Assembly: GCA_963809485.1 (NCBI GenBank)
Contig: CAWEJX010000007.1
Location: 128,001-192,000 of the forward strand
Length of the DNA: 64,000 nt
DNA from: an uncultured Acidobacteriota bacterium
Lineage (GTDB): Bacteria > Acidobacteriota > UBA6911
Reading direction: 5' to 3'
Of this stretch, positions 27,170 to 45,753 are shown piece after piece. Position 1 is the first letter of the stretch, and each line of letters opens with the position of its first letter. Under the pieces are notes generated by a model. It was given only the letters and a program-made list of their open reading frames with translations. It was not told the DNA's origin and made no database searches. The position numbers and the translations under genes are program-made.

Positions 27170-27790
27170 TCAATGCTTCGGATTCAGCCATTTAAGAGGG
27201 ATAAACATCGACACATTTCGCTGATATTCCCGGTATATGTCGCCGAATTCGAGTACAAGCTTTTTTTCCTCCAGGAGGGTTCCAATTACCAGATACGCAG
27301 AAAGAACGGCATTGACAACTATGGTCGCCACATTCAAATCGTTTGCCCATATAAGAATGAATACGGCCAAGTACCACGGATGGCGGATGAGTCCCAAAAC
27401 TCCACTGGAATCAAGTTCGCCGCTTTTTGTCATTGCACCGGCCAGACGATTGCTTCGGATTTGCTGCAAACCGATAAATAGACTCATGCTGTAATGTCGG
27501 GCTCCGCCTATAATGAGCACGGCGGCCAGAAGCGCCAAGGAATAACGAGCCATTCGCCAATTTCCCTCCCAGACAAAGACAACTGAGCCTCTAAATCGAG
27601 GGGAATCTGAAAATAGGAGTAGAGGAATCAACGTTCCAATAGAAAAGAGATTAAATAATATCCGGGAAAAACAATACTTGGTTCCAAGAACGCGCTGGAA
27701 AAAGCGTGTCGCCCTTACGGAAATCAACCAACTGTGAACCGCACAATAGGCGATCCACAACAATGCAAGCACTATGTGATCGGTTCGCAT
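27170..27790 (-). CDS. NnrU/isoprenylcysteine methyltransferase-like membrane protein
   Basis: YCAVHSWL, GLIRHPWY and EEKKLVLEFGDIYREYQRNVSMFIP motifs. Confidence 0.82.
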   Translation of the reverse strand: MRTDHIVLALLWIAYCAVHSWLISVRATRFFQRVLGTKYCFSRILFNLFSIGTLIPLLLFSDSPRFRGSVVFVWEGNWRMARYSLALLAAVLIIGGARHYSMSLFIGLQQIRSNRLAGAMTKSGELDSSGVLGLIRHPWYLAVFILIWANDLNVATIVVNAVLSAYLVIGTLLEEKKLVLEFGDIYREYQRNVSMFIPLKWLNPKH

Positions 27791-27863
27791 AGCAGCTTTT
27801 CTACACCGAATGCCGCGAGACGGGAAGTTTTTTTGAAATATTGCTTGACAATCCATTTGCTTG

Positions 27864-27895
27864 ATACAATTATTGTATTATGCAACTATATTGCA
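27864..27895. promoter_or_regulatory. Candidate MarR operator(s) in the divergent intergenic region
   Basis: Palindromes ATACAAT-T-ATTGTAT and TGCAA-CTATA-TTGCA immediately before marR. Confidence 0.5.
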
Positions 27896-27905
27896 GGGGG
27901 AGCAA

Positions 27906-28391
27906 TTGGAGATCAAATCCATCGAGCGGTTCAGGGCGAAGCTTCGGGAAATAGAGCGCGCCGTGTGGATCCAAACCAAAAGTGAAGCTCTCTGTTGCGG
28001 CGTCACGATGGCGCAGTGCCATGCAATCCTGGAGATAGGCGAAGCGGGAGAATTGAATTTGAAGGATTTATCCGCCCGCTTAGGACTTGATAACAGCACC
28101 CTTAGCCGGACCGTCGAGAGTTTGGTTCAGGACGGGCTTGCGGAAAGAACTCCAAGCACGGAGGACAGACGCGCGACGGTTATACGATTGAATGAAAAAG
28201 GCCGTGCGGCCCGCGACCGTATCAATACCACCTGGAATCGGATCTGCCAGGATATGTTTAAAGGCATTCCGCAGGAGAAACACGCGCAGCTTGTCGAATC
28301 CGTATCGATAGTTGCAGAGCTGCTTGCCGGTTGCTGTATAGATCAATGCTATATAAAAAAATCTGCTACTAAAGAGAGAGCTCGTGTTTGA
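27906..28391 (+). CDS. Cys-rich MarR-family regulator
   Basis: GVTMAQCHAIL, LGLDNSTLSRTVESLV and DRRATVIRL; CC pairs at both ends; TTG start after a GGGGGAG RBS. Confidence 0.88.
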   Translation: MEIKSIERFRAKLREIERAVWIQTKSEALCCGVTMAQCHAILEIGEAGELNLKDLSARLGLDNSTLSRTVESLVQDGLAERTPSTEDRRATVIRLNEKGRAARDRINTTWNRICQDMFKGIPQEKHAQLVESVSIVAELLAGCCIDQCYIKKSATKERARV

Positions 28392-28437
28392 GGTTATATA
28401 TTGGGGTTTTGCAATAATTTTTGGGAGGTAACCACAG

Positions 28438-29286
28438 ATGAATTCCACAGAAATAAAACAGATCGTTAAAGAGAAGTATGGACAGGCGGCGGTGCAGGCA
28501 AAATCCGGCGGGCGCAGCTGTTGCGGATCTTCGAGCTGCTGCAGTTCCGTAGACCCTATTATAAAAGATCTATACTCATCGGACGAGATGGCGGAGCTTC
28601 CGGAAAAGGCTGTTCTGGCATCGCTTGGGTGCGGCAATCCCACGGCTCTCGCGGAGCTAAAGCCTGGCGAAACAGTCCTTGATCTTGGTTCAGGGGGCGG
28701 CATTGATGTTCTATTGTCTGCCAGGCGTGTGGGGCCAAATGGCAAGGCCTATGGTCTCGACATGACAGACGAAATGCTCTCGTTGGCGCATGAAAACCAG
28801 CGCCAGGCCGGCGTCAAGAACGTCGAATTTCTGAAGGGAGAAATCGAAAATATTCCCCTGCCCGACAACTCCGTGGATGTGATCATTTCCAATTGCGTGA
28901 TCAACCTTTCTGCGGATAAGGATAGCGTTCTGCGTGAGGCGTTTCGAGTCCTGAAGCCGGGCGGACGCTTCGCTGTCTCAGATGTTGTTGTGCTGGGAGA
29001 TATCCCGGCAGATATCAGGAAGAATGTTGAGCTTTGGGCTGGCTGCGTTGCCGGCGCATTGCATCAGGATGAGTATCGTTCTAAGCTTGCAAAAGCGGGC
29101 TTCGAGAAGATGGATGTCGAGCCAACTCGCATTTATCAGGGGCAGGACGTCAGGGATCTTCTATCCGGGACGAATCTGGACGCGGAGTCCATAATTGCTC
29201 AGGTTGATGGTAAGTTCGCCAGCGCTTTCGTTCGCGCTCAAAAACCGGCTGCGGCATGCTGTGGATCAGATTGCTGCCGTGGATAG
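28438..29286 (+). CDS. arsM: Arsenite methyltransferase
   Basis: SLGCGNP, VLDLGSGGGID, IISNCVINL and WAGCVAGA motifs; CC-rich termini. Confidence 0.93.
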   Translation: MNSTEIKQIVKEKYGQAAVQAKSGGRSCCGSSSCCSSVDPIIKDLYSSDEMAELPEKAVLASLGCGNPTALAELKPGETVLDLGSGGGIDVLLSARRVGPNGKAYGLDMTDEMLSLAHENQRQAGVKNVEFLKGEIENIPLPDNSVDVIISNCVINLSADKDSVLREAFRVLKPGGRFAVSDVVVLGDIPADIRKNVELWAGCVAGALHQDEYRSKLAKAGFEKMDVEPTRIYQGQDVRDLLSGTNLDAESIIAQVDGKFASAFVRAQKPAAACCGSDCCRG

Positions 29287-29352
29287 TCAGCCATCTCACC
29301 GCTTCGCCATACAGACGGTATTTGGAAACTCGCAGAGGGGAGGAATCTGTCG

Positions 29353-29895
29353 ATGAGAAAGCCATATCTTTTTAATCCGCTCTTTCATCTATCGGCAACG
29401 CTTTTGTTCGTTGGGATCATGCTTGGATCTCCTGAGAGCGGAAGGCTCGCGATGGCTGCAGAAAAATTGGCCGGGGACCAAGCTTCGGAGTCGAAACAGG
29501 CTGATCCGCCCCAAAAACCGATAGTTCATCCCGAAGTACCCAGAATTCCGGCGTTGGAAGTCAAAGAAATGCTCGCCAAGAAGGCAGATTTTGTAATCGT
29601 GGATACGAATCCTGCGGATTTCTTCGATATGTGGCACATTCCGACGGCTATCAACATACCCTATATAATAATGATGCATAATCCGGGTAAACGCGAGAGC
29701 ATGGTTTCGGCTCTCCCCAAAGATAAACTGATTGTGCTTTATTGCCTATGCGAGGAAGGTGCCGACAGCTCTGAGGTGGCATTGATACTGAGAAGTATGG
29801 ATTTCCGCCGGGATAAGATAAAAGTGCTGGAAGGCGGCATGATCAAGTGGGATGAGGCGGGCTATCCTATGATTAAAAACGAAGTGCCCGAGTAG
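29353..29895 (+). CDS. Exported rhodanese-domain protein
   Basis: Hydrophobic N-terminal signal, HIPTAINIP, YCLCEEG active-site loop and VLEGGMIKW. Confidence 0.85.
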   Translation: MRKPYLFNPLFHLSATLLFVGIMLGSPESGRLAMAAEKLAGDQASESKQADPPQKPIVHPEVPRIPALEVKEMLAKKADFVIVDTNPADFFDMWHIPTAINIPYIIMMHNPGKRESMVSALPKDKLIVLYCLCEEGADSSEVALILRSMDFRRDKIKVLEGGMIKWDEAGYPMIKNEVPE

Positions 29896-30069: not shown

Positions 30070-30480
30070 CTATGTATTGGCAAGTACCTTGTCGACTTCA
30101 GTGGCGATTTTTTCGGCAACCGACTCGACAGCGTCTTTGTCTACTTGCGATGCATTGCGAGATGAACGGCTGCAACTCGCAGCGGTTGTTCTCAGAATTT
30201 CTGAGACCACGATTTCGCCGGTTACAGGGCCACTGTGCTTTTCGGTGCCCCATTTGGCACATTGCTTCGTGCAGCCATCGATAGCGATGGTTGGGTGTGT
30301 TTTTGCGAAATTCCGTTCGCCCTCCTCCCCGGCCAGGAACAACGGCAGGCATAGGGTCACTGTTTTGCCTGGTCGCAGAGATTCCAGCACGCGCCGAACC
30401 GCCAGGCGGGCTATTGTTCCTTCGGGAATCGCTTCGCCGCTGCATGAGATAATTCCTGCCTTCGTGATTTCTTTGCTCAC
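30070..30480 (-). CDS. DGC-domain putative zinc-binding protein
   Basis: IISCSG, LCLP and IAIDGCTKQCA motifs. Confidence 0.85.
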   Translation of the reverse strand: MSKEITKAGIISCSGEAIPEGTIARLAVRRVLESLRPGKTVTLCLPLFLAGEEGERNFAKTHPTIAIDGCTKQCAKWGTEKHSGPVTGEIVVSEILRTTAASCSRSSRNASQVDKDAVESVAEKIATEVDKVLANT

Positions 30481-30902
30481 TGGATTCCCTCCTTGCCGCT
30501 CCGCAGACTCGCTGCCTTATCAGCGACTTCAGCAGCAATTTCTCTGGCAATACTCCAGCCTTCATCATTCAGTTCGGTTGGACTGCCGGGTTTGGCGCCG
30601 GGGTGCTTCTTTAGGGTCTCGACAACTTCAACTGCAACAGGATTTCCCCCCGCGATCTTTACGTTCTTTTCGGCGCACGCCTTAGGGCAGCCATCGATGG
30701 TAATGCAGTGCTGAGTTTTCACAGCATCAACTACTTCAGCTTCTCCTTTCACGAGCAAACCCAAGCACACTGTTTCTGTTTGTTCCGGCGCAATTTCATC
30801 TATGACCAGGTATGTTGCTTCACGTGTCAGCAACCCATGGACTTTGCCAATCCCGCTGCACGGAATCACCAAAACTGGCTTTTTGTTCTCTCCAGACCCC
30901 AT
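30477..30902 (-). CDS. DGC-domain putative zinc-binding protein
   Basis: IPCSGIG, VCLG and ITIDGCPKACA motifs; start MGSGENK. Confidence 0.85.
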   Translation of the reverse strand: MGSGENKKPVLVIPCSGIGKVHGLLTREATYLVIDEIAPEQTETVCLGLLVKGEAEVVDAVKTQHCITIDGCPKACAEKNVKIAGGNPVAVEVVETLKKHPGAKPGSPTELNDEGWSIAREIAAEVADKAASLRSGKEGIQ

Positions 30903-30960
30903 CCAACACCCCCCTTCCAATACCTTGTTGCGTTCCGGCCCCAAACCGGGATCGATAACG

Positions 30961-31458
30961 TCATTCAGGAACTTCCTGTTTGATCATTGGATAACCCGAT
31001 TCATCCCACTTGATCAAACCGCCCTCCAAAACCTTGATTTTGTCACTGTCGTAACCCAAGCGCTTCAATTCCAATGCCATTCGGGCGCTATCGGTGCCCT
31101 CTTCACACAAGCAATAGATGACGATCAATTTATCCATCGGCAGGGCTACCAGCATCATTTCGCGATCGGTTGGATTCCCGGTGGAAATATACGGAATGTT
31201 AACAGCCGTCGGGATATGCCACATTTCATAGTTCTCTGAAGGCTGGGTGTCCAGGATGACAATATCCGCCTTTTTTGCGAGCATTGCCTTGACCTCCAAT
31301 GCGGCAATCCGCGGAACCTCGGGATGCGTCAGTGTTACCTTGGGCGATGCGCCGGTCTTAGTCTCGGAAGCTTCCGGCTGTGAGAAAAGGCTTCCGACCA
31401 AGGACGCACAAAGAGTTAGAAACATCATCGCTTCCAGCAATCTCACAGAAATCCTCAT
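30961..31458 (-). CDS. Exported rhodanese-domain protein, paralog of 29353-29895
   Basis: HPEVPRI, MWHIPTAVNIPY, YCLCEEG and VLEGGLIKWDE are nearly identical to the first copy. Confidence 0.85.
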   Translation of the reverse strand: MRISVRLLEAMMFLTLCASLVGSLFSQPEASETKTGASPKVTLTHPEVPRIAALEVKAMLAKKADIVILDTQPSENYEMWHIPTAVNIPYISTGNPTDREMMLVALPMDKLIVIYCLCEEGTDSARMALELKRLGYDSDKIKVLEGGLIKWDESGYPMIKQEVPE

Positions 31459-31507: not shown

Positions 31508-32779
31508 TTAGGGACACTGGATGACACCTTGTGCCCACAGGCAGCCACCGCATGCGGGTATAGGGCTGCCGATGCAGTCCTCCTGGTTTGATTCGAACAA
31601 TTCACAGCCGCCGCAAATGATGCATGGAGAGAAATTGAATTCCTGTAGCCGCCTGCGTAACGCGAGATACTCCGGCTTGTTCCATATTTGTTCGATACTT
31701 CGATTCAGCACATTTCCCACAACGTGGCGTTTTATGGATCGCTGGTAACTATAGAGATACATCTTATGCTCGTGCATCAATGCCAGGCAGGGACTAACAT
31801 CGCCATCCCATCGGATAGCCAAAGCCCCCTTTTCGACAAAAGGACAGCGGTTATTGCTTGCGGCCAGATTGCCTCCGGCAAAGTTCAACGCATGGTCACC
31901 GCGCAATACCTGGAAAATCGCCTCGCGAGTCGCAGGACCGACATCCATCTTTGGAAATTCAAGATAGCGCAATAATGGCGCAGAGGTATAAATGGAATCG
32001 GATACTGCGTGCGAATATAAAATTTCATTCTGCATTTCAGGCGTGTACGGGAGGACGTTTGTCACCATAAAATGGAGGGAGCCCAATCTGTTGGCGAGAC
32101 TGAGGACCGCAGGCAGATCTGCAATATTGCGCTTCATCGCCACGAACACAATCCCGATTTGCGGCTTAAGGTGCAGATCAAAAAACTCAGGCATATACTT
32201 CTGCCATCGTGCATGACGAAATTCATGCAGGTTGTTAACCACCTCAGGCAAAGCCGCCCCGAGGCGCACATCTGTATAGCTTTCGGGCGTGGCACCATCC
32301 AGGGAAACCCACAGTTTGTCCAGACCGATAGCAACCAGTTCCGTCGAAACTTCTTTGCTAAGCAGCATCCCATTTGTAATCAGCTCGACCTTGGAACCGA
32401 GCGCTTTGGCTTCTCTCACCATGCGCAGGATATTAGGATGTGACAGCGGTTCGCCGAGCCCGCCGAAAAAGATATCGGGAGGTGGATCGTAAGAGCGCAA
32501 TCCTTCGATTATTCTCGAGTAAGTATCGGAACTCATCGTCCCCAAGGGTTCATCCCAGCTATTGCGAATGCAGGTTACGCAATCCAGGTTGCAGCGATTG
32601 GTGGGCTCAATATATACCTTCGCCAGCTTGGTCACTGGCCTGAGAATGGTTAGTCTGTTCGTATTCCCTTCGATCCGGATTTTTGCCCCGGAGGTTAATC
32701 CATACTGCCTGGCAATGTCCGGAGGGAAAATGAGGGATCCATCTCTTTGAATATCAATTACAGGGTCTTTATCCTTCAT
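31508..32779 (-). CDS. Radical SAM/SPASM protein with AbrB-like N-terminal domain
   Basis: CNLDCVTC, GGLGEPL and a Cys-rich tail (CPF..SPC..CIICGGC..DC..CGGCLWAQGVIQCP); N-terminal DGSLIFPPDIARQYGL. Confidence 0.88.
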   Translation of the reverse strand: MKDKDPVIDIQRDGSLIFPPDIARQYGLTSGAKIRIEGNTNRLTILRPVTKLAKVYIEPTNRCNLDCVTCIRNSWDEPLGTMSSDTYSRIIEGLRSYDPPPDIFFGGLGEPLSHPNILRMVREAKALGSKVELITNGMLLSKEVSTELVAIGLDKLWVSLDGATPESYTDVRLGAALPEVVNNLHEFRHARWQKYMPEFFDLHLKPQIGIVFVAMKRNIADLPAVLSLANRLGSLHFMVTNVLPYTPEMQNEILYSHAVSDSIYTSAPLLRYLEFPKMDVGPATREAIFQVLRGDHALNFAGGNLAASNNRCPFVEKGALAIRWDGDVSPCLALMHEHKMYLYSYQRSIKRHVVGNVLNRSIEQIWNKPEYLALRRRLQEFNFSPCIICGGCELFESNQEDCIGSPIPACGGCLWAQGVIQCP

Positions 32780-32803: not shown

Positions 32804-33490
32804 TCAGAATCCCATCAGGTTCTTTAAGAGAAGATAGATACCGGCGCCAATGAAAATTACGGCCGTCAATTTGCGCACCCATTTCTCGATTTGAGTCAAT
32901 TTGTCGAAAATCTTCCCAATGGACTTCACGCTGAAAACCATCACAAGCGCGAAAGCAACGACAGGGAGCGCTGTCCCCAGTCCATAGACGGACGGCATCA
33001 TAACGGCGGATTTGCCATCGATTGCCAGTGGGATCAGGCTGCCAAAAAACAGAGCTGCCGAAAGCGGGCAGAAAGTCAGAGCAAAAATGATTCCCAGAAG
33101 CCCGGATCCCCACATCCCCCATTTGCCGGCTTTCTCTTGAACGGAATTGCTGACCAGAGACGCTGAGAATGAAATGGGGATTACATCCAACAGGATGATG
33201 CCGACGATTATCAGCAGGGGCCCAATAATTTTGTGCATATTCGATTCAAGGAAGAAAGATACTTCCGGCAGGGAGAGCAGGCTGGCAACCGCCAGGACCG
33301 CGATAGCAACATACGTGAGCATTCTGCCTGCCGCATAAAGCAATCCGCTCCATAAAACCTTTTTTGATGATCCCAGATTCCTTGATATGAAGGAGACGGC
33401 CGCGATGTTTGTGGCCAGGGGACACGGGCTGATTGAAGTCAGAATCCCGAGCCAAAAGGCGGAGAAGATATCCAGGTAGTAATTCGGCAT
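32804..33490 (-). CDS. ArsG-like (CcdA/DsbD-fold) membrane protein
   Basis: LGILTSISPCPLATNIAA and FALTFCPLSAALFFG motifs. Confidence 0.82.
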   Translation of the reverse strand: MPNYYLDIFSAFWLGILTSISPCPLATNIAAVSFISRNLGSSKKVLWSGLLYAAGRMLTYVAIAVLAVASLLSLPEVSFFLESNMHKIIGPLLIIVGIILLDVIPISFSASLVSNSVQEKAGKWGMWGSGLLGIIFALTFCPLSAALFFGSLIPLAIDGKSAVMMPSVYGLGTALPVVAFALVMVFSVKSIGKIFDKLTQIEKWVRKLTAVIFIGAGIYLLLKNLMGF

Positions 33491-33503: not shown

Positions 33504-33950
33504 CTAGCCTTTGGCCAGGTAGCTCCGGACTTCTTTTCGCACGTAATTGAGGAAGGCGTCTTTGCGCCCCGTTAATTGCCACACCATTTTCAGGTTCGTC
33601 CACTCGGTTTGTTTCCCATTAACCGTATTCACCAGGACAAGCGATTTGGATACAAGTTTGTAGTCCTGCATGAAATGCTGATTTTCCGGCTTCTCATAAT
33701 TAACAATCCGCATTTCCAGAGTTCCGTTCTTCAGCTCTTCAGGAAAACCCTTTTCGATCGCTTCTTTCGAATAGGCCTCGATTTTCATGCAGGTGCTGCA
33801 ACGGTAATCGGTATGAAAATAATAGGCGATCACCTTATGGGCTCCTGCTGTCGTAGGGGCTTTCTGAGCCAATACGCTTACTGCTGGATATACGACGGCA
33901 ACAGCCAATCCTAGAAAAAACAAACATCTCAAGAAATACTTATTGATCAT
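33504..33950 (-). CDS. ArsF-like exported thioredoxin-fold protein
   Basis: Signal peptide, YYFH..YRCSTC.KIE and W.NL..VWQL motifs. Confidence 0.8.
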   Translation of the reverse strand: MINKYFLRCLFFLGLAVAVVYPAVSVLAQKAPTTAGAHKVIAYYFHTDYRCSTCMKIEAYSKEAIEKGFPEELKNGTLEMRIVNYEKPENQHFMQDYKLVSKSLVLVNTVNGKQTEWTNLKMVWQLTGRKDAFLNYVRKEVRSYLAKG

Positions 33951-34022: not shown

Positions 34023-34427
34023 TTAGAAAGTTTTTCCCACGATCGAAACGGAAGACTTCACCTCAACGGGATACTGATACAGGAGACATTCCCCCTTCTG
34101 AACAGCCTTTTGCAGTCGCGCTGAATCCGCTTTCAGAACCTCATCGAAGGGACAACACTTATCCAGGAGTTCGTAAAGAGCTGCAATTTGAGGTGTATCT
34201 GCCGATGCCAGTGAATAAATGATTTTATTCCCACTCCGGCTATCCATAACCACTCCGGCATGCCTCAATCCGGCCAGGTGTCGTGACACTGTCGATTGAG
34301 GGATCTGAAGCACGGCTTGAAGCTCACACACACAAATGCTGCCCAATCTCAGCAGATTGAGAAGCCTGAGTCGTGTAGGGTCCGATACAGCCTTGAACAA
34401 TTGATCCAGTCGATCTGGTTTCATCAT
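34023..34427 (-). CDS. arsR: ArsR/SmtB-family regulator
   Basis: FKAVSDPTRLRLL, ICVCEL and QSTVSRHL motifs. Confidence 0.88.
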   Translation of the reverse strand: MMKPDRLDQLFKAVSDPTRLRLLNLLRLGSICVCELQAVLQIPQSTVSRHLAGLRHAGVVMDSRSGNKIIYSLASADTPQIAALYELLDKCCPFDEVLKADSARLQKAVQKGECLLYQYPVEVKSSVSIVGKTF

Positions 34428-34558
34428 TATGCACCGCTGTCTATGGACAGGTTGAGAATAGCATGGAAATAGAAGACTCCCGTACCGTTGCCCGGATGCC
34501 TTTGGCTAAACCTAAGATATTGCGTTATTTGGGCCTGCAGCATTTATGGAAATAGTCC

Positions 34559-34656
34559 TTGACTACATTCGTTAAACCGGATATATGAATGCAAATCAAG
34601 GAGATCAAACTGAAAGAAACAGCCGGTTCTTTATTGTACTCGCCGATGAGACTCGA
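34559..34656 (+). pseudogene. Orphan ars promoter/operator plus 5' stub of an arsR paralog
   Basis: TTGAC..CATTCGT..AACCGGATAT.TGAAT matches 38976-39007. After an AAGGAG RBS, restoring one base gives (M)KETARFFIVLADETR, compared with [16 protein letters not shown] of the 39030 arsR. Confidence 0.7.
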
Positions 34657-37713: not shown

Positions 37714-38772
37714 CTAGGAAAAAATGAAGTTTCCCGTAAACCAGCCGACGAAGGTTCCCAACACTGTAATCAAAAGGACATAAACAATCCCTTTTTTAAA
37801 ACCGAATACTTTCATGATCGCCAATATGTTTGGAAGACTCATTCCGGGGCCTGTCAGCAGAAGGGCCAGGGCCGGACCCTTTCCCATTCCCAAGTCCAAC
37901 ATTTTGTGAACGAAAGGAGCTTCCGTCATCGTTGCCATGTACATGATCTGGCCGATCACCGTTGCGAGGAAGGAAGCCAATATGCCGGTCCCACCCAGCC
38001 AATTTTGAACCCACTGTTGAGGTAAAAGTTTGCCAATAATCCCCACAACAAATACTCCAGCCAATAATAATGGAAGTATGATTCTCACAAACCACCATGT
38101 TTCCCGCATCCAGTTGGCAATCTCTTCCATCGACTTGGTCTTAAAGGCATAGATGCCAATCAAAATCATTCCGATTGCCCAGACATAGATCTTATGAAGA
38201 TATGGTCCTTTTTGAACCAGGTAGTTGGGAGCCAGTAGGGTTGCTACCACCAGAAGAATCAGTATTAGATCTTTGGGCGAAATAAGCTTTTTGCCCTCGC
38301 CATTCAAATGCAATGCCTTTCCAATCCGTTGAGCTTCGTCTCGACGAAAAGCATAGCTCATCACCCAACCCACCAGAAAAGCCATGGCTAGAGCGGAGAT
38401 TATCCGGAGAATCACCATCTGAGATCCCAGAATCGCTCCGGTGTAGACGATAGCCAGAATGTTTGTCGCCGGCGCCACCCAAAGAATAATGAAGGCCGCT
38501 CCAATTCCGGCGCCGCTGTAATACAAACCACCGGATACTGGAATTACGGTGCAGGAGCAGGCTGCTACAAAAAAACTCCCTCCGCTGGCTATGGCAAAGG
38601 ATTTTATTTTGTTAGCGGTCGCTCCCAAATAATGGATGATCGTTTCCTTGGAGATAAAGGAAACCATGGCACCCGCCAGTAAAAACGCGGGAATCAGGCA
38701 GGTCACGATGTGAAGAGCGATGTAGTCCTTCAGGGCATCCAATCCGGCGCGTATCAACTCAAGAACAAACAT
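37714..38772 (-). CDS. ArsP/DUF318-family permease
   Basis: CLIPAFLLAGA, AACSCTVIP, MYMATMTE and GMGKGPALALLLTGP motifs. Confidence 0.88.
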   Translation of the reverse strand: MFVLELIRAGLDALKDYIALHIVTCLIPAFLLAGAMVSFISKETIIHYLGATANKIKSFAIASGGSFFVAACSCTVIPVSGGLYYSGAGIGAAFIILWVAPATNILAIVYTGAILGSQMVILRIISALAMAFLVGWVMSYAFRRDEAQRIGKALHLNGEGKKLISPKDLILILLVVATLLAPNYLVQKGPYLHKIYVWAIGMILIGIYAFKTKSMEEIANWMRETWWFVRIILPLLLAGVFVVGIIGKLLPQQWVQNWLGGTGILASFLATVIGQIMYMATMTEAPFVHKMLDLGMGKGPALALLLTGPGMSLPNILAIMKVFGFKKGIVYVLLITVLGTFVGWFTGNFIFS

Positions 38773-38975
38773 AGACCCTTTCCCCCTTCCGCTTAGAGGC
38801 AACTATGCCAGCAGATGTTAAAAGCTCGTTGTTTAGCAAATCTGGGGCGAGGATAGCATGAGTTGGCGTGAAGGGTATCCGCATTCTCCGAGCAACTAGA
38901 TGTTGCCTCTGGAATCACCGCTTGGTTGGCCCTCAAAAACAGCATGGCGAGATTAGTTTGGATTCGCGATTTATC

Positions 38976-39029: not shown

Positions 39030-39461
39030 GTGAAAGAGGCATCTCGGTTCTTTAAAGTCCTTGCCGATGAAGCGCGGCTAAAAATGCTCTGGCTGCTGTT
39101 TAACCATCGGGAGCTCTGTGTTTGCGACATTATGGCCGCACTGGAAATCACTCAGTCCAAAGCCTCCCGGCACCTCGCCGCTCTGCGAAACGCCGGCCTG
39201 GCGACGGATCGAAAGGAAGGATTGTGGTCCTATTACTCGCTCCGCCCAGCTGAAGACGAGCTTGTAGAGGCGCACCTGACGCTTCTACGGACGAGTCTCT
39301 CTAAACGCCCGGATGCGAAACACCTGCTGGTGAAGCTCAACGCATGGTTAAAGGTGAAGCAAGGCGGCGAGACGTGTCCCCAAAACAACAATCGGGTTCA
39401 CGCCACGAAGAACGCTAAAAGCGGTTTTGTGCAAATATCCCTTACTGGAGGTTCTCGATGA
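39030..39461 (+). CDS. arsR: ArsR repressor
   Basis: [17 protein letters not shown] and SKASRHL motifs; heads the acr3-arsC operon. Confidence 0.9.
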
Positions 39462-40546
39462 GTAATAAATCCGCTGTTGCTCCAGCTGCAGAACATGCAG
39501 GCGTTGCGAAGCGACTTTCATTTCTGGACCGTTATCTGACACTTTGGATTTTCCTCGCCATGATCGTAGGTGTCGGGGCTGGGTATCTATTTCCCGGAAT
39601 AGTTCCCTTTCTAAATAAATTCAGCGTGGGAACGACATCCATCCCGATAGCCATTGGCCTCATTCTTATGATGTATCCGCCTCTCGCCAAGGTGCGCTAT
39701 GAGGAAATGGGACCCGTTTTCCGCAACACCAAAGTGCTTGGGCTGTCCCTTGTGCAGAACTGGGTTATCGGCCCAATCCTGATGTTTGCCCTTGCCGTGC
39801 TTTTCCTGCGCGACAAGCCCGAATACATGGTCGGCCTGATTATGATCGGCCTGGCTCGCTGCATTGCCATGGTTATCGTCTGGAACGATCTGGCAAAGGG
39901 AGACACGGAGTACTGCGCCGGTCTGGTTGCCTTCAATTCGATCTTTCAGGTCTTCTTGTATTCAGTCTATGCATACGTTTTCATCACCGTTTTGCCGACC
40001 TGGTTTGGATTGAAGGGTGTAGCGGTGGACATAACCATCGGCGAGATTGCCAAGAGCGTCTTTATTTATCTGGGGATACCGTTCATTGCCGGCATGATCA
40101 CGCGTTACACGCTTATTAAGGCGAAAAATAAGCAGTGGTACCACGAGAAGTTTATTCCGAAAATCAGCCCTATTACGCTCATCGCCCTGTTATTTACGAT
40201 TGTTGTGATGTTCTCACTTAAGGGCGAAACCATCGTGCAGCTGCCGTTTGATGTAGTTCGTATTGCAATCCCGTTGCTCATATACTTTTTGCTGATGTTT
40301 TTCATCTCATTCTTTATGAGCAAAAAGGTTGGCGCCACTTACGGCCAGGCGGCGACGCTTTCTTTTACAGCAGCATCCAACAACTTTGAACTTGCTATCG
40401 CCGTCGCGGTTGCCACTTTCGGCATCCAGCACGGCGGGGCCTTTGCTGCGGTTATCGGTCCCCTTGTTGAGGTTCCGGTACTTATTGGCCTGGTCAATGT
40501 TTCGCTGTGGCTGGGGCGAAAGTACTATGGGAGGAAGGACCTTTAA
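39458..40546 (+). CDS. acr3: Arsenite efflux transporter Acr3
   Basis: [42 protein letters not shown] and GPLVEVPVL motifs. Confidence 0.95.
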
Positions 40547-40956
40547 TGCCCAAAGGCATTCTCTTTTTGTGCGTTGCAAATTCAGCCCGCAGTCAGATGG
40601 CCGAGGGAATTGCGCGCTCTCTTGCGCCGACTGGAGTGAAGATCTGGTCGGCTGGCTCTCGCCCGACGAGTGTTCGCCCCGAGGCCATCGCGGTACTCAG
40701 GGAAATCGGGATAGACATTTCAGGCCATCGTTCAAAAGCGGTGGCCGAGATCCCTGCCTCCGAAGTTGATACGGTGATCACTCTTTGTGCGGAAGAGGAG
40801 TGTCCGGTTTTTCTGGGAAAAGCTCAACGGCTGCACTGGGGATTGCCAGATCCTGCAGCCGTCGTTGGCTCCGAAGAAGAGATCCTGACGGCGTTCAGGA
40901 AAATGCGCGATGAATTGTCCCGACGTATTACAGCTTTCCTGAAGGAGAATTGTTGA
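40546..40956 (+). CDS. arsC: Thioredoxin-type arsenate reductase (LMW-PTP fold)
   Basis: LFLCVANSARSQMAEG, TLC...CP and HWGLPDP motifs; start MPKGIL. Confidence 0.9.
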   Translation: MPKGILFLCVANSARSQMAEGIARSLAPTGVKIWSAGSRPTSVRPEAIAVLREIGIDISGHRSKAVAEIPASEVDTVITLCAEEECPVFLGKAQRLHWGLPDPAAVVGSEEEILTAFRKMRDELSRRITAFLKENC

Positions 40957-42255
40957 TGAAGGATTGGAAAAAATTCGCATGGTTGGTTGGGATATTTCTG
41001 GTTGCCTATTATATCCCGCTCGGAAATCCGAAGGTTCACTAATGCCATTCTCGAATCCTTCCGGCTTCTGCAATGGTATGCGGTAAACCATACTCTCGCC
41101 TGCGTGGTTCCAGCCATGTTCATCGCGGGCGCGATCTCCACATTCATGTCTCAGGCTTCAGTGATGCGCTATCTCGGCCCAAATTCCAACCGCACGCTGG
41201 CTTACGGCGTCGCTTCCGTGTCGGGGACAGTCCTTGCGGTGTGTTCCTGCAGCGTTCTGCCCATGTTCGCGGGAATTTATGCGATGGGCGCAGGGCTCGG
41301 TCCGGCGAGCGCATTTCTATATTCGGGGCCGGCCATCAATGTCATGGCGATATTTCTTTCTGCACGAGTTCTGGGCTTCGACCTTGGCGTAGCCCGAGCC
41401 GTCGGCGCAGTGGTTTTCGCAGTTGTCATCGGACTGTTTATGGCGATTGCATTCCGTGTCGCCGATCAACGAAGGGTCAGCGAAATGCATTTGCCGGATG
41501 CACCGCCAAATCCGCGGCCGCTATGGAAGACCACGCTTTATTTTCTATGCATGATCCTCTTCCTGATCTTCTCCGACTGGTATAACACCAACGATGTGAC
41601 CCTGACCATGAAGGACGGGAAGACGATCAGCGCCAATATCCGTTACTCAACACAGGACAACCTGGATATTCAGGAATATCAGCCGGATGGCCAGTTATCA
41701 ACCGAGGTTCGGCGGATCGACAGGCAGAATATTGCCTCCATTGAGCCGGTGCCGGGTTTTACAATGACCGTTCACGGCATTAAATGGTATCTCGCCGGCG
41801 CGATGGGCCTTCTGGTGCTGCTCATGTTGTGGAAATGGTTTTCTCACGATGAAGTGAAGCAATGGATGCAGGCAACCTGGGACTTCGGATTGATGATAGT
41901 ACCGCTCTTATTCGGAGGCGTGTTCCTGACCGGATTTATAGGCGCGCTGATCCCGGAACGGGCGGTCGCGGTCTTTGTCGGTGGCAATAGCCTGATCTCA
42001 AATTTCATCGCTGCTTTTGTCGGAATGATCTGGTACTTCGCCACGCTGACAGAAATCCCAATCGTCGAAATGCTGATGCGCCTGGGAATGGGCAAGGGAC
42101 CGGCTCTGGCACTTTTGCTGGCTGGGCCTGCGCTCTCCTTGCCCAGCATCTTTGTCATCTACAAAATCATCGGCGGTAAAAAGACATTTGTGTTCTGTTC
42201 GCTGGTGGTGGTCATGTCCACGGTTGTAGGTTTCCTGTTTGGTATGATGCGTTAG
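40956..42255 (+). pseudogene. ArsP/DUF318 permease with a +1 frameshift near 41033 (or sequencing error)
   Basis: ATG 40956 overlaps the arsC stop and reads MKDWKKFAWLVGIFLVAYYIPLGNPKV before stopping; the +1 frame continues TNAILESF. Motifs VCSCSVLP, YFATLTE and GKGPALALLL are present. Confidence 0.82.
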
Positions 42256-42269: not shown

Positions 42270-42521
42270 ATGAAGATCAAGGTCCTGGGCACCGGATGCC
42301 CGAAATGCAAGAAGCTGTATTCCGAGGCTGAAAAGGCCATTGCCTCGTCGGGCGTGAAAGTCGATCTGGAAAAGGTCGAGCAGATCACCGAAATTATTAG
42401 ATACGGCGTGATGTCAACCCCCGGCCTGGTCATCGACGAAGAAGTCAAAGCGAGCGGGCGTATTCCCAAAAGCGAAGAGATCGTCTCATGGATTAAGACG
42501 GCTGCAAAAAGCGGCGATTAA
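42270..42521 (+). CDS. Small redox-active disulfide protein (MTH895/ArsE-like thioredoxin)
   Basis: KIKVLGTGCPKC and YGVMSTPGLVID motifs. Confidence 0.9.
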   Translation: MKIKVLGTGCPKCKKLYSEAEKAIASSGVKVDLEKVEQITEIIRYGVMSTPGLVIDEEVKASGRIPKSEEIVSWIKTAAKSGD

Positions 42522-42560
42522 ACTCTGTGTCACTGTAACCTCATTCCATAGGAATCTGCC

Positions 42561-43019
42561 ATGGCGAACGATCCCAATAACGAGCTTAAGCTGACAATAG
42601 ACAAGTTTATCTTTCGGTTTCCCAAAACGCTGCTATACAGCGAAGCCGGACTGTGGATCAGGCAAGAGCACGGTTTGCTCCGGATAGGAATATCCGACTT
42701 TACACAGCAGAGAAACGGCGATATCACATTTGCCACCGTGACAGCGGCAGGAACCTCACTGAATGTAGGTGATGAAATAGCCAGTATCGAAACGGTGAAG
42801 GTCATTTTCAGCCTTCCGTCTCCAATGAAGGGTAAAATCGTTGAAGTCAACGCATCCCTCCAGGATTCCCCCGAGCTAATGAACCAGGAACCCTACGGCA
42901 TGGGTTGGATGGTCGTCCTGCAGCCTGAAGACCTGGAACGCGATCGCGCTACACTCATGACAGCCGAGGCATATTCCAATCTGGCCAGACAGCAAGCCGA
43001 AGCTGAACTGAAGTCTTAG
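42561..43019 (+). CDS. Stand-alone glycine cleavage H-like lipoyl carrier
   Basis: RIGISDF, IETVK (lipoyl Lys), SPMKGKIVEVN and NQEPYGMGW motifs. Confidence 0.88.
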   Translation: MANDPNNELKLTIDKFIFRFPKTLLYSEAGLWIRQEHGLLRIGISDFTQQRNGDITFATVTAAGTSLNVGDEIASIETVKVIFSLPSPMKGKIVEVNASLQDSPELMNQEPYGMGWMVVLQPEDLERDRATLMTAEAYSNLARQQAEAELKS

Positions 43020-43103
43020 CAACTAATTCAAGTGGATCCGGATTACATTCCGGACAACTTGATTCCAGTCACACCTACAACGATATTGCAGTGAGGTACG
43101 CCG

Positions 43104-43562
43104 ATGGCACGCACCGCAACCTATAACACAACAGTTCAGTGGAAAGGTGAACACTGGGGCCATATCCAAATGGGGAACGGCCCTGAAATGGATTTCTCAG
43201 CCCCGCCGGACGCTCAAGGTCACCCAGGCGTACTCACGCCCGAAGATGCCTTCGTGGCTGCGGTCAACACATGTGTCCTGATGATGTTCATCTGGTCGGC
43301 CGAACGATTTAAATTGGACCTTGTATCTTACGAGTGCTTCGCAGAGGGCACAAAACTGATAGAGCTGGATCGCACTGAAATATTCTCTCAGGTTTTATTG
43401 AAGCCGCGAATCGTGGTGAATTCAGAGCAAACGGACAAGGACGCAGTTTCTAAGAGGCTGCGGAGAGCTATGGACAGCGCGGTGAAGTACAGCCTTGTGG
43501 CAAATTCAATCAAATCAAAGCTTGTCATTGAGCCACAAATTGAAATCGTTTCAAAGCAATAG
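43104..43562 (+). CDS. OsmC/Ohr-family protein
   Basis: FSAPP...TPEDAFVAAVNTC; the second conserved Cys position reads KYSLVANS. Confidence 0.8.
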   Translation: MARTATYNTTVQWKGEHWGHIQMGNGPEMDFSAPPDAQGHPGVLTPEDAFVAAVNTCVLMMFIWSAERFKLDLVSYECFAEGTKLIELDRTEIFSQVLLKPRIVVNSEQTDKDAVSKRLRRAMDSAVKYSLVANSIKSKLVIEPQIEIVSKQ

Positions 43563-43589
43563 ATATGTATAGAAGCGTAATGAAAGGAG

Positions 43590-43883
43590 CTTTCCAGGAT
43601 ATTCGGTCTTTATCCGATCATCGGTATATTTCGGCGCGAATCCGACGAACGGTGGTATTTGTCAACAAAACTCACCTTTGGAACGATATCGGCATTGTAT
43701 GGCTTCTCGCATAATATTGTAACTCAGCAGCAGTATTCTATTCTTGTTGCGGTGGTAATTGGCAGCGCCGTTATTCCCACATTGACTGCCGGGCTTTTCT
43801 TTTTGCCTCGCTATCTTCTGCCCGTGACAGAACAAACGAAGGAATCGATACCTGTTGAAGAGGAGCTAAACGAAGAGGGATAG
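43590..43883 (+). pseudogene. C-terminal remnant of a cation:proton antiporter
   Basis: IFGLYPIIG...ERWY.STKLTFGTISALYG...QYSILVAVVIGSAVIPT; no 5' part present. Confidence 0.6.
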
Positions 43884-43967
43884 CAAATCACCCGCATTGC
43901 GGATTGAGGCTGAGCTTTTTGGGCGATGGAATAGGGAACATATGGCGCGACGGGCACATTCGTTTTT

Positions 43968-44897
43968 CTAGCCTGCAAAATATTCTCTGATGTAGCTTAT
44001 TGCCAGGAACAACAACATAACCACCAACATCACTTTAATAAATCTCTGCGGCATGTATTTCTGAAGCCGGGCTCCGCAATACATCCCCACCATGCCGCCC
44101 AGGCCGAAAAGAATTCCAAGCAGCCAGTCGGGAGAGGTGGAGATGCCTTGTTTCAACGGCACAAAGGTGTAGAAAAGGACGCCGGCCATTGAGGTCAGAA
44201 AAGTTCCAAAGAGCGCTGCGCCGGCAATCATGTAAACCGGAAGGCCCAGGAAAGCCACGCAAAAAGGTGCGATTATCGAGCCTCCTCCAATTCCGTATGC
44301 GCCTCCGACGATGCCCACAAGAAATGCCATAACCAGCATTTTGGGAGTGGCGAAGGAAAAGCTGTTCCCGCAGAATTCATATTCCGTCTTCTTTGCCGAG
44401 AAGGAGATGGTTCGGAGATTCACCGGAATTCCAATCATCCGGGCTATGCTTGGGACTTCGTTCTGCCCAATATCTCCGCCATTTTTGGCCTTCGTCATGG
44501 CATCCAGCGCAAGTCGCACGCCCACATATAGGAGAACGCAGGCGACAAACAATCTGAATGATCGAGGATCTGGGAGATATACAACCCGAAAATAGTAGCC
44601 CAGGAATATCCCCGGAAGAGTTGATAAAGCCAGGAGCCAGGCAAGATGCCATGCCATGCGTCCTTCACGGATATAGCGATAGACGCCGCTCGGAATGGCC
44701 ACAATGTTATAGACGAAATTGGTAGCGCTGACGGATGGGGTAACGAAATGCAGATAACTGATCTGAAATGGCAACAGGAGAAAGGCTCCGGAAACTCCTC
44801 CCATCGAGGCAAAGAAGGAAACCACAAAAGCCACGAGAGGCGGAAGGAAAACCCAGGTCGTCACTCCGGATACCGGAAAGCTTATTTGCAGATCCAT
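43968..44897 (-). CDS. TauE/SafE-family sulfur-compound transporter
   Basis: SMGGVSGAFLLLP and GGAYGIGGGSIIAP repeats; PDWLLG motif. Confidence 0.9.
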   Translation of the reverse strand: MDLQISFPVSGVTTWVFLPPLVAFVVSFFASMGGVSGAFLLLPFQISYLHFVTPSVSATNFVYNIVAIPSGVYRYIREGRMAWHLAWLLALSTLPGIFLGYYFRVVYLPDPRSFRLFVACVLLYVGVRLALDAMTKAKNGGDIGQNEVPSIARMIGIPVNLRTISFSAKKTEYEFCGNSFSFATPKMLVMAFLVGIVGGAYGIGGGSIIAPFCVAFLGLPVYMIAGAALFGTFLTSMAGVLFYTFVPLKQGISTSPDWLLGILFGLGGMVGMYCGARLQKYMPQRFIKVMLVVMLLFLAISYIREYFAG

Positions 44898-44958
44898 TCA
44901 TTCCCCCGAGAATTTGTCCCCGTTCAGTTTTTCCGCGGCAGGCTCAGATTAAACCGCT

Positions 44959-45753
44959 TTATAGAGGGCTCTTTTGCCTGATTGCCTCCAGTACTCCAAG
45001 CGCAATTCGCCTCGGCCGCTCCGCGATACCAGTAGTTTTCGATGGTTCACCGCGAGGATCCACTTCGATGACTTTGGCTTTCTGTGCCACCGGCACTCCG
45101 TCGTGCGTAAGCCCGCGAATTATTCCGCTGATTGGGGCATGCAGAATGGAATCTCCAATATTGGCAACCTTCTGACCCGCTGTAACCCTATCGCCGATCC
45201 GGCATGTCGTCTGAAAGACGCCGGCGACTGGTGCATATATATAGCGATCTCGAGCGTGTCCTGCTATTGTCTGCGGTTCACCCTCTAATGGGCGGGTTGC
45301 TCCCTGCCATAGAACCTTTCCTAGCGCCTCGTTCCATCCGGTTTCCACGGCAGCATGGACTGTTTCTCCGGCAATGAAATTGGGGCCCAGGCCCACGGTG
45401 AATGGCGCCAGGGTAATCTGTATCTCGGGCTGTTCATGCTTTTTCATCCTGGCATCCACTAATACATCAGGCCTAATAGAAGAAATCAGAGTTGCCAAAT
45501 CGATCGAGACTATAGGTATGAGGGCATGCAACGCCATGTGTGCGGTGATTTCGGAGAGATCGGTCATATACTTGGCGTTCACTCCCTCCAGCACGGCAAC
45601 GCCATCGAATATCGCATCGCAAAAGGCCATTTTGCGTCGAGTAGCCGTTGGCTGCGCCGAATCATGAATGAAGACCGCATATCCAGCTCTAAATAGCATA
45701 TGCGCAACAGCAGACCCGACATCACCACTTCCACATACAAGAATTGTTTTCAT
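44959..45753 (-). CDS. YqeB-like selenium-dependent Mo-hydroxylase accessory protein
   Basis: GSGDVGSAVA, RRKMAF, DARMKK, GLGPNF, VET and KVIEVDPRG motifs; start MKTILV. Confidence 0.8.
   Translation of the reverse strand: MKTILVCGSGDVGSAVAHMLFRAGYAVFIHDSAQPTATRRKMAFCDAIFDGVAVLEGVNAKYMTDLSEITAHMALHALIPIVSIDLATLISSIRPDVLVDARMKKHEQPEIQITLAPFTVGLGPNFIAGETVHAAVETGWNEALGKVLWQGATRPLEGEPQTIAGHARDRYIYAPVAGVFQTTCRIGDRVTAGQKVANIGDSILHAPISGIIRGLTHDGVPVAQKAKVIEVDPRGEPSKTTGIAERPRRIALGVLEAIRQKSPL

Follow-up and report, generated by a model that had tools for sequence, protein, structure and literature searches.

The stretch of DNA analysed here (the window; 64,000 nucleotides, positions 128,001 to 192,000 of contig CAWEJX010000007.1, assembly GCA_963809485.1) comes from an uncultured Acidobacteriota bacterium of the UBA6911 lineage and carries an arsenic-resistance (ars) island at positions 27170..45753. 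An initial annotation, made from the sequence alone, had placed here arsM, acr3, arsC, two arsP genes, arsE/F/G-like genes and arsR genes, together with genes for two rhodaneses, two DGC proteins, a radical SAM (rSAM) enzyme, GcvH, OsmC, TauE and YqeB. All of them were confirmed at or within a few bases of this interval by the listing of open reading frames (ORFs) and by Pfam and NCBIfam scans, the Pfam scan comprising 33 window ORFs between 24.4 and 50.4 kb. A MarR gene, a membrane-methyltransferase gene and a molybdenum-hydroxylase gene pair, all three described below, were absent from that annotation. The minus strand holds arsP1 (38802-37714), a pair of genes for a 2Fe-2S subunit and a molybdenum (Mo) hydroxylase (37454-34708), and the series arsR1-arsF-arsG-rSAM-rhodanese2-DGC1-DGC2 (34427-30070), in which, from arsR1 on, genes are separated by 13-72 nt and DGC1 and DGC2 overlap by 4 nt. 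The plus strand holds MarR-arsM-rhodanese1 (27861-29895) and arsR2-acr3-arsC-arsP2-trx3-gcvH-osmC (39030-43562). The guanine-plus-cytosine content of the island is 49-53%, compared with 55-57% upstream (16-26 kb) and 53-55% downstream. As the island is the only ars locus of the 6.04-Mb genome, and as these accessory genes accompany ars genes in other phyla as well, the clustering of ars and accessory genes exceeds chance. The region is thus a composite arsenic-resistance island, consisting of a known core, conserved accessory modules, and lineage- or genome-specific additions. The thiol and lipoyl-carrier genes beside the ars genes probably form an undescribed arm of arsenic defence.

The core follows the arrangement of established ars operons. 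Acr3, the arsenite efflux transporter (39458..40546, plus strand; TIGR00832, 469.5 bits, cutoff 282.8), is followed by a putative ArsC of the thioredoxin-coupled low-molecular-weight phosphatase type (40507..40956, plus strand; PF01451, E 3e-20; TIGR02691, 113 bits, below the cutoff of 174), in which the CX5R loop and a later cysteine pair are readable. The two ArsP-family permeases (ArsP1, 37714..38802, minus strand, PF03773 237 bits; ArsP2, 40987..42255, plus strand, 249 bits) each contain a CSC motif. Two ArsR-family regulators are present, namely ArsR1 (34023..34427, minus strand; PF01022, E 1.8e-15), encoded by the first gene of the minus-strand accessory operon and carrying CVC in its DNA-binding domain, and ArsR2 (39030..39461, plus strand; PF01022, E 3.8e-16), the regulator of the plus-strand operon, with the motif ELCVCD. 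Judged by these motifs, both are CVC-containing repressors of the thiophilic metalloid-sensor type. ArsM, the arsenite S-adenosylmethionine methyltransferase (28438..29286, plus strand; NF008823, 377.5 bits, cutoff 263), shows an N-terminal cysteine cluster and three further cysteine motifs on reading, and is preceded by a MarR-family regulator (27861..28391, plus strand; PF01047, E 5e-14). A MarR gene upstream of arsM is also found in two relatives (L014 and L028). In the first of these, the same-genus genome G012, genes for HgcA (NF040863, 425 bits, cutoff 275) and HgcB (120.5 bits, cutoff 99) lie between MarR and arsM (L014:2816-4165), so that the mercury-methylation pair is embedded in an ars island.

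The accessory cassette that joins this core encodes a GcvH-like lipoyl carrier, two DGC-domain proteins (DGC1 and DGC2), an OsmC-fold protein and a small thioredoxin. The GcvH paralogue (42561..43019, plus strand; PF01597, E 3e-33) shares 32% identity with the nearest other GcvH-like gene of the same genome and retains the E-x-x-K lipoyl-lysine motif, which is kept in all 16 sequences compared. The OsmC-fold protein (43104..43562, plus strand) gives a weak match to PF02566 (34.9 bits, cutoff 27.5), and its two cysteine columns are both conserved in 15/15 sequences. The thioredoxin (Trx3; 42270..42521, plus strand) belongs to the Thioredoxin_3 proteins of the MTH895/ArsE family (TIGR00412, 106 bits, cutoff 62), has the active-site motif CPKC, and the CxxC is present in 62-63 of 64 homologues. 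On the minus strand, DGC1 (30477..30944, likely start at 30902; PF08859, E 8e-13) has three invariant cysteines, C15, C72 and C76 (alignment A3). DGC2 (30070..30480) is cysteine-rich and was found on reading the minus strand; its atlas clusters are 100% PF08859 and four cysteines, C13, C44, C70 and C74, are invariant (alignment A2). The DGC2 family is small: in a set of 1.84 billion representatives, 476 clusters match at E <= 1e-3, and 99 do so at E <= 1e-30. A plus-strand ORF antisense to both DGC genes (30059-30685, 208 aa) has no family match and is read as spurious.

Structure prediction supports a heterodimer of DGC1 and DGC2, in which the conserved cysteines of both proteins would meet at the interface. 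Three runs of the predicted complex scored 0.87, 0.65 and 0.72 (median 0.72), and the best of three controls scored 0.00. A score of 0.72 is attained by 116/157 solved complexes and by 2/215 mismatched pairs, rates that are only rough where own alignments are used. The three runs share at least 79% of contacts, with a pLDDT (predicted local distance difference test) of the partners of at least 83. The predicted interface is formed by DGC1 residues 13-19, 44-54 and 74-77 and by DGC2 residues 12-18, 44-51 and 72-78, which are the cysteine motifs. Natural fusions agree with the predicted pairing: eight of 12 scanned family representatives contain two DGC domains and one combines a DGC domain with Thioredoxin_3, DGC-GcvH fusions are encoded in two loci (L131 and L121), and the sequence of a third (L030) reads likewise. 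On its own, DGC2 is modelled by AlphaFold2 (AF2) as a flavodoxin-like alpha/beta sandwich (pLDDT 73). A Foldseek search of this fold against the PDB returned no match at E <= 1e-3, and a wide VIA search gave a best Z of 6.2, within the noise range, in a tie of flavodoxins, receiver domains, the complex I subunit PSST/NuoB, and ArsH; the naming of a fold relative was rejected on these two results. A profile search of DGC2 against solved structures gave nothing under E 0.69. In Chloroflexota, DGC2 genes (L063:12139-13050 and others) are extended at the C-terminus by about 100 aa, a part that includes a conserved stretch C-S-C-G-S-G-I-P and gives no significant Pfam match (best E 0.08).

A second accessory module would act in the cell envelope. 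ArsF (33504..33950, minus strand; NF040494, 118.8 bits, cutoff 60) is an exported thioredoxin-fold protein with a hydrophobic N-terminal signal, whose CxxC motif recurs in 18-19 of 19 sequences. AF2 models it at a mean pLDDT of 83.8, blocks of 10 residues across the folded domain reaching 90-98, and Foldseek returned 17 matches at E <= 1e-3, of which those listed are all thioredoxins, including an entry of a thioredoxin-ArsC complex. An ArsF homologue of one Acidobacteriota record contains two in-frame stops and may be a broken copy (L038:5951-6391). ArsG (32804..33490, minus strand; NF040495, 289 bits, cutoff 200; PF13386, E 3e-16) is a DsbD_2/CcdA-like membrane protein, in which Cys23 and Cys141 are conserved in 13/13 sequences. 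Given the signal peptide and thioredoxin fold of ArsF and the CcdA-type cysteines of ArsG, the ArsE-ArsG-ArsF trio looks like a thioredoxin-CcdA-periplasmic thioredoxin relay, as far as sequence and predicted fold can tell. Two rhodanese-like proteins are encoded alongside, one on the plus strand (29353..29895; PF00581, E 1e-12; hydrophobic N-terminus) and one on the minus strand (30961..31458; PF00581, E 2.7e-14). The initial annotation had cast them as persulfide donors; their signal peptides mark both as exported proteins and not as cytoplasmic donors. Their Y-C-L-C-E-E-G loop is invariant in 12/12 sequences, and of the NCBIfam models a rhodanese-related (seleno)protein family comes closest to them (59.6 bits for rhodanese 2, below the cutoff of 115). 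Going by the name of this model, the selenocysteine of such homologues would align with the second cysteine of the loop. Outside the loci of the genus itself, rhodanese homologues were found in one of 80 genome loci (an Acidobacteriota record) and in three of 80 metagenome contigs (taxon unassigned); the exported rhodaneses are therefore lineage-specific.

Linkage of the accessory genes to ars genes was examined from three seeds: the rSAM enzyme (80 genome loci), DGC2 (80 metagenome contigs), and DGC2 in a class draw of Chloroflexota (201 genomes). A core ars gene was defined as Acr3 at >=50% identity, ArsC, ArsM, ArsF/G or ArsP, within a distance limit of 10 kb. The rSAM seed, an alignment of 14 sequences (A1), yielded 80 loci at 41-79% identity, against which the window proteins were run by tblastn. 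These loci belong to Chloroflexota (mostly Anaerolineae), Deltaproteobacteria/Thermodesulfobacteriota, NC10, Asgard archaea and others, and the closest records are metagenome-assembled genomes of uncultured Acidobacteriota, one UBA6911 record among them. A core ars gene lies within 10 kb in 30/80, and GcvH-DGC1-DGC2 occur in that order in 15/80, 14 of which also have an OsmC-like gene, usually directly downstream. Trx3 homologues are present in 32/80, ArsM in 8/80, and no match to any core ars, cassette, Trx3, arsFG or rhodanese gene was obtained in 37/80. The DGC2 seed (alignment A2) retrieved 80 contigs, 21 of them at least 12 kb long. On these longer contigs, DGC1 and GcvH are present in 21/21 (67/80 and 55/80 of all contigs), an ArsR-family gene in 20/21 (39/80), Trx3 in 17/21 (34/80), OsmC in 8/21 (24/80), a core ars gene in 9/21 (25/80), and the rSAM gene in 0/21 (1/80).

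The same arrangement is seen in Chloroflexota, where an even draw of 201 genomes of the class contained DGC2 at E <= 1e-30 in 27. Among 20 of the 28 places matching DGC2 for which counts were made, ArsR and DGC1 are found in all 20, Trx3 in 19, GcvH and OsmC in 18 each, a core ars gene in 10 (Acr3 in 8) and the rSAM gene in 8; in 5 loci acr3 lies on the same strand 0.2-1.1 kb downstream of the cassette. By estimate, a 20-kb segment placed at random in a genome that has a single ars locus would meet it in about 1% of cases, compared with the 43-50% co-location of cassette and core ars genes. The regulators support the same association: of 49 ArsR-family proteins encoded within 4.5 kb of DGC2, 47 contain CxC, mostly as G-E-x-C-V-C in the DNA-binding domain and in some as a C-terminal cluster. 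The cassette of GcvH, DGC1, DGC2, OsmC and ArsE-type thioredoxin behind ArsR, often directly upstream of acr3, is conserved across phyla, and so is ArsF-ArsG followed by a radical SAM/SPASM enzyme. The linkage proposed by the initial annotation accordingly stands for the rSAM enzyme, GcvH, the two DGC proteins, the OsmC-like protein and the ArsE-type thioredoxin, which recur with ArsR, acr3, arsC and arsM in records of Acidobacteriota, Chloroflexota, Deltaproteobacteria/Thermodesulfobacteriota and NC10. It is not supported for the rhodaneses, for YqeB (0 of 178 fetched loci) and for TauE (one relative). A literature search, with subscription journals mostly outside its scope, found no paper describing the cassette.

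Further genes that join the cassette elsewhere indicate how it may be supplied. A lipoate ligase of the LplA/LipB type is encoded in L131 and L121, and tblastn finds one in 11 of 69 cassette loci. In L224 and L229, a dihydrolipoyl dehydrogenase (Lpd) gene lies between arsR and gcvH (TIGR01350, 511 and 515 bits, cutoff 408.8). An Lpd or a lipoate ligase is a sensible companion only for a working lipoyl cofactor. The lipoyl-carrier role given to GcvH by the initial annotation is supported by these genes and by the conserved lipoyl-lysine motif. The 69 loci also include 4Fe-4S ferredoxins (26), a cysteine-rich protein of 125 aa (21), CcdA/DsbD_TM proteins (16) and membrane-anchored thioredoxins (13). 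Within the genus, 18 loci were compared, which were picked around rSAM matches and include loci centred on paralogues; many of their contigs stop before the position of the DGC genes. In 10/18, arsF-arsG-rSAM are contiguous beside a divergent arsR-acr3, and DGC1-DGC2 are present as well in 5. In G012 (L014) the genes form one operon, arsR-arsF-arsG-rSAM-rSAM-rhd-rhd-gcvH-osmC-trx3-DGC1-DGC2, an arrangement that speaks for a joint function of the genes that the window divides between two operons. In another relative, G003, genes for an ExtI-like porin (113.8 bits, below the cutoff of 150) and a YedE selenium transporter (490 bits, cutoff 200) follow TauE-ArsR-rSAM-(DGC)GcvH-DGC1-DGC2 (L015:13506-15959), a neighbourhood that hints at a selenium or tellurium context.

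The radical SAM/SPASM enzyme (31508..32779, minus strand; PF04055, PF13186) bears an N-terminal extension of about 50 aa. It lies directly after ArsG in 10/18 genus loci and in 10/80 other loci, and a match at E <= 1e-40 is found in 20/24 same-genus genomes and in 0/16 other sampled genomes of the class. Its best model is TIGR04317, the rSAM maturase of a tungsten cofactor oxidoreductase, at 293.3 bits, below the cutoff of 380. Against solved structures it matches generic radical SAM cores only (Tes, BlsE, BtrN, PqqE, MoaA). Two rSAM genes of 70% identity (L013, L020) adjoin glnA with no ars gene nearby. Of 16 annotated rSAM loci lacking ars and cassette genes, eight encode a tungsten aldehyde:ferredoxin oxidoreductase (AOR), and three of these have MoaA and/or MoaD/MoaE beside the rSAM gene. 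In a tree of 96 rSAM sequences, ars-linked, AOR-linked and unlinked members are interleaved, and the ars label requires 19 changes compared with 30.9 when shuffled. The ars-linked members are hence clustered without forming one clade, and a single ars-specific rSAM clade was rejected. Because of this interleaving, the enzyme is best described, from its phylogeny, as a recurrent recruit to ars operons and not as an arsenic-specific family. The initial annotation had cited the organoarsenical enzymes ArsL and ArsS in its support; a model of neither is among the best 25 of the 39 NCBIfam matches of the rSAM enzyme, so that any such match would be weaker than E 9e-9, the presence of these models in the library being unconfirmed. 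No AFOR domain was matched among the scanned window ORFs. For the N-terminal extension, Pfam gave no AbrB-like match at E <= 0.05 (whole protein) or E <= 10 (residues 1-51), and no AbrB/MazE chain turned up when its profile was searched against solved structures. Four rSAM homologues have directly upstream of them an ORF of about 100 aa that ends in Gly-Gly and, by eye, resembles MoaD/ThiS (L097:8688-8999, L089:4884-5198, L081:6099-6506, L083:9494-9796); a tungsten AOR is encoded in the first three of these loci and gave no match in L083. As these four were the only cases among 178 loci and the window, MoaD-like proteins ending in GG were rejected as general rSAM partners.

We postulate that the accessory modules constitute an ArsR-controlled lipoyl/dithiol redox relay, a reading of inferred mechanism to which we give an even chance. 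The two ArsR repressors would control Acr3 (As(III) efflux), ArsC (As(V) reduction) and the two ArsP-family permeases, with ArsM (methylation) behind its own MarR. In the cytoplasm, the lipoylated GcvH paralogue, the DGC1-DGC2 heterodimer, the two-cysteine OsmC-fold protein and the ArsE-type thioredoxin would form a dithiol relay centred on the lipoyl arm. This arm would be reduced by Lpd where one is encoded and elsewhere perhaps by ferredoxin-type partners through the DGC pair, and would pass its electrons to the OsmC-like protein and the small thioredoxin. These in turn might serve ArsC, the reduction of hydroperoxides, or the release of As(III) from protein dithiols. In the envelope module, the cytoplasmic thioredoxin would reduce the CcdA/DsbD-like ArsG, which would hand electrons to exported ArsF; the exported CxC rhodanese-like proteins may serve in this lineage as further electron acceptors of the ArsG relay.

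Several observations weigh against the proposed lipoyl/dithiol relay. Its direction of electron flow and its final substrate rest on inference, and neither an Lpd nor a lipoate ligase gene was found in the window. For window positions 30070-34427 no RNA data set was listed, and the DNA data sets listed all had small shares (0.15 or less). Only about half of the cassette loci (9/21, 10/20) have a core ars gene within 10 kb, so the cassette can stand with an ArsR-type regulator alone, and the CVC motif of such regulators is found also in Cd/Pb/Zn sensors of the ArsR family. The rSAM gene is missing from most DGC2-seeded loci and its family is not ars-specific. The structural searches with DGC2 returned no relative above noise. 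Lastly, Chen, Zhang and Rosen in 2019 are said to have described ArsG as a permease for efflux and ArsE/ArsF as parts of a nitroreductase, which differs from a CcdA-like relay; the predicted fold of ArsF and the motifs of both ArsF and ArsG suggest an exchange of thiols and disulfides.

The invariant cysteines, three in DGC1 and four in DGC2, within the predicted interface might also be read as a binding site. Dihydrolipoyl-GcvH and the cysteine site of the DGC pair could sequester As(III) or trivalent methylarsenic (MAs(III)), either buffering the housekeeping lipoyl enzymes or handing the metalloid to Acr3 or ArsP, as ArsD does for ArsA. Dihydrolipoyl groups are classical targets of As(III), three-cysteine sites are its usual ligands in ArsR and ArsD, and the close downstream acr3 of the 5/20 Chloroflexota loci would suit a chaperone. 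We nevertheless consider sequestration unlikely, as the presence of Lpd, lipoate ligase, ferredoxin and CcdA among the partners speaks for redox turnover and against stoichiometric binding, and a partner with a peroxidase-type OsmC fold would be without a role in a pure chaperone. Quite unlikely in our judgement is a generic module for thiol, peroxide or sulfane-sulfur stress, in which a lipoyl-dependent OsmC peroxidase under ArsR/SmtB sensors, with no arsenic-specific chemistry, tends to settle in metal(loid) islands. The CxC in 47/49 adjacent regulators, typical of thiophilic metalloid sensors, the co-location with core ars genes far above the chance estimate, and the acr3 close downstream on the same strand in several loci all speak against such a module. 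It would account for the roughly one half of cassette loci that lack a nearby core ars gene and for the ExtI-like porin and YedE selenium-transporter genes beside the module in one relative (L015). Precedents exist as well: Ohr/OsmC, lipoyl proteins and Lpd are described as a peroxidase system in the relevant passage of PMC5384416, and PMC12423496 and PMC10451225 describe the sensing of sulfane sulfur by ArsR-type repressors in sulfur oxidisers.

The model put forward in the initial annotation, in which the accessory genes serve to form or degrade organic or thiolated arsenicals, appears the least probable of the readings considered. Here, C-As bonds would be the target of ArsM and the rSAM enzyme, the latter being, for instance, an anaerobic C-As lyase or a synthase like ArsL/ArsS, and sulfane sulfur would come from the rhodaneses. 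The position of the rSAM gene right after arsF-arsG, a named organoarsenical family, in 10/18 genus and 10/80 other loci is in keeping with this model, as are the presence of ArsM and two ArsP-family permeases in the island and that of ArsM in 8/80 rSAM loci. Against these stand the 19 changes of the ars label on a tree that interleaves tungsten-enzyme-linked and unlinked members, the lack of an ArsL or ArsS model among the 25 best NCBIfam matches of the rSAM enzyme, the export of the rhodaneses and their near-confinement to the genus, and the majority of DGC2-seeded loci, in which the cassette occurs without an rSAM gene. Evidence specific to thiolated or organic arsenic is found neither in the gene content nor in the comparisons made here, and the interpretation in the initial annotation is, overall, partly supported. 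Highly doubtful is the further idea that the cassette represents a new enzyme system, in which a dihydrolipoyl arm bound to protein, and recharged through Lpd or ferredoxin, would reduce pentavalent arsenicals such as methylarsonate or strip As(III) from poisoned dithiols. With the post-arsFG rSAM enzyme performing oxygen-independent C-As or C-S chemistry, it would then be an anaerobic counterpart of the oxygen-dependent ArsH and ArsI. No gene for a methylarsonate reductase is known to have been identified.

The lipoyl/dithiol relay proposed here resembles several known systems in part. With ars operons of the arsR-acr3-arsC, arsM and arsP type, the island shares, by scores and motifs, the regulators, pump, putative reductase, methyltransferase and permeases, and adds ten co-oriented genes without an assigned arsenic role, namely those for the GcvH paralogue, DGC1, DGC2, the OsmC-like protein, the rSAM enzyme, two exported rhodaneses, the Mo-hydroxylase pair and a membrane methyltransferase. 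Compared to ArsEFG, all three family models are passed (106 against 62, 118.8 against 60, and 289 against 200 bits), yet the arsE-family gene (42270-42521, plus strand) lies apart from arsF-arsG (32804-33950, minus strand), which are here followed by the rSAM gene; arsE, arsF and arsG are contiguous in four deltaproteobacterial loci (L052, L054, L069, L095). Thioredoxin-like relays through CcdA or DsbD to the periplasm are known from ResA/TlpA/CcmG and SoxV-SoxW. The island matches them in the DsbD_2 domain and two invariant cysteines of ArsG, in the exported thioredoxin-fold CxxC protein ArsF and in a small cytoplasmic thioredoxin nearby, and differs in the exported CxC rhodanese-like proteins found in the operon of this lineage. 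From the TIGR04317 maturases, the best model of the rSAM enzyme, the island departs in its score of 293 against 380, in the lack of an AOR in the window, and in the placement of the rSAM gene in an ArsR operon after arsG.

Two further comparisons concern the lipoyl carrier. The sHdr-LbpA system of sulfur oxidation uses a lipoate-binding protein with a dedicated lipoate ligase and the radical SAM proteins LipS1/LipS2, according to PMC6067878 and PMC10332631. Measured against that description, the likeness lies in a GcvH-like lipoate-binding protein outside glycine cleavage, sometimes with its own lipoate ligase, in thiol- and sulfur-handling neighbours, in an ArsR-type regulator, and in the tandem rSAM paralogues of some island relatives. 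In contrast, no Hdr-like, DsrE or TusA family was found among the 33 scanned ORFs, the carrier is partnered in the island by DGC proteins and a protein of the OsmC fold, the rSAM enzyme is of the SPASM type, and the context is arsenic and not sulfur oxidation; a dedicated lipoate:protein ligase was not found in the window, and is present in 11 of the 69 cassette loci elsewhere. Lipoyl groups bound to protein serve as reductants of Ohr/OsmC enzymes (Cussiol et al. 2010, as cited in PMC5384416), and the likeness to this peroxidase system, as far as that passage describes it, consists in a two-cysteine OsmC-fold protein, a lipoyl carrier and Lpd in one operon (L224, L229). It is limited by the weak PF02566 match (34.9 bits), by two DGC proteins and a thioredoxin as extra obligatory neighbours, and by control through ArsR instead of OhrR. 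The closest published neighbourhood is an ArsR5-ArsP-ArsE-DGC operon of Pseudodesulfovibrio mercurii ND132, in which a PF08859 DGC gene behind ArsE is called of unknown function (10.1101/2022.10.17.512643). That passage names a single DGC gene and makes no mention of GcvH, OsmC or rSAM.

Arsenic resistance is among the best-mapped detoxification systems, yet mostly known from aerobes. Anaerobe-rich lineages (Acidobacteriota, Anaerolineae-type Chloroflexota, relatives of sulfate reducers, and NC10) repeatedly place the cassette of lipoyl carrier and cysteine proteins, together with a CcdA-like relay of the envelope, in ArsR operons. Should the cassette act on arsenic, protein-bound lipoate would be a new cofactor in arsenic biology, and its use would account for the way in which cells guard, or turn to use, precisely the dithiol poisoned by As(III). 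An ArsE-ArsG-ArsF relay from thioredoxin through CcdA to a periplasmic thioredoxin would likewise revise a named family. The predicted DGC1-DGC2 heterodimer provides a first structural hypothesis for the DGC domain (PF08859).

The remaining genes of the island are mostly incidental to these modules. The Mo hydroxylase of the xanthine-dehydrogenase family (large subunit and 2Fe-2S subunit, 34708..37454, minus strand; PF02738, PF20256, PF01799) sits between arsP and arsR, an odd position, since arsenite is a classical inhibitor of enzymes of this family. The pair is the third paralogue of the genome, the others lying at C14 (about 72-74% identity) and at C7:377.8k (about 50%). Each of the 30 genus genomes has between one and three copies, two being the commonest number and three being found in G000. 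A role as conserved ars partner was rejected, as the pair is absent from the 18 genus ars loci, copies are found in 30/30 genomes, and in G018 the closest copy and the ars locus are on different contigs. YqeB, of the Mo-hydroxylase maturation family (44959..45768, minus strand), passes TIGR03309 narrowly (221.7 bits, cutoff 220); with no homologue in the fetched loci, it probably belongs with the molybdenum genes and not with the ars module. The TauE/SafE-family anion permease (43968..44897, minus strand; PF01925, E 7e-40) has a homologue of 68% beside ArsR-rSAM-GcvH-DGC-DGC in one relative only, seen twice (L015, L030); it is weakly linked to the ars module. Divergent from MarR-arsM lies a gene for an ICMT/MddA-like membrane methyltransferase (27170..27856, minus strand), which scores 61 bits with NF045656 (MddA), far below the cutoff of 270, and is specific to this genome, no homologue being present in the 18 loci of the genus. 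The Mo-hydroxylase pair, YqeB, the membrane methyltransferase and probably TauE are additions not common to the ars loci of the fetched relatives.

Genes flanking the island in the window (BBE oxidase, TetR, GlpP, esterase, PBP-like) gave no matches in the fetched loci, which does not by itself show mobility. Between YqeB and the PBP-like protein, ORF 45933-46505 encodes only the C-terminal half of an ABC-transporter ATPase (TIGR01187 positions 144-298 of 325) and looks truncated. Within the island, direct repeats of 33 nt and 26 nt, each 85% identical, occur at 34558-34649 and 38975-39070, where the arsR2 promoter and first codons are duplicated beside arsR1 (34558..34649, plus strand; direct repeats D1 and D3). 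The 4.3-kb segment between the two copies (34650-38974), which contains the Mo-hydroxylase pair and arsP1, looks like the scar of a rearrangement or insertion.

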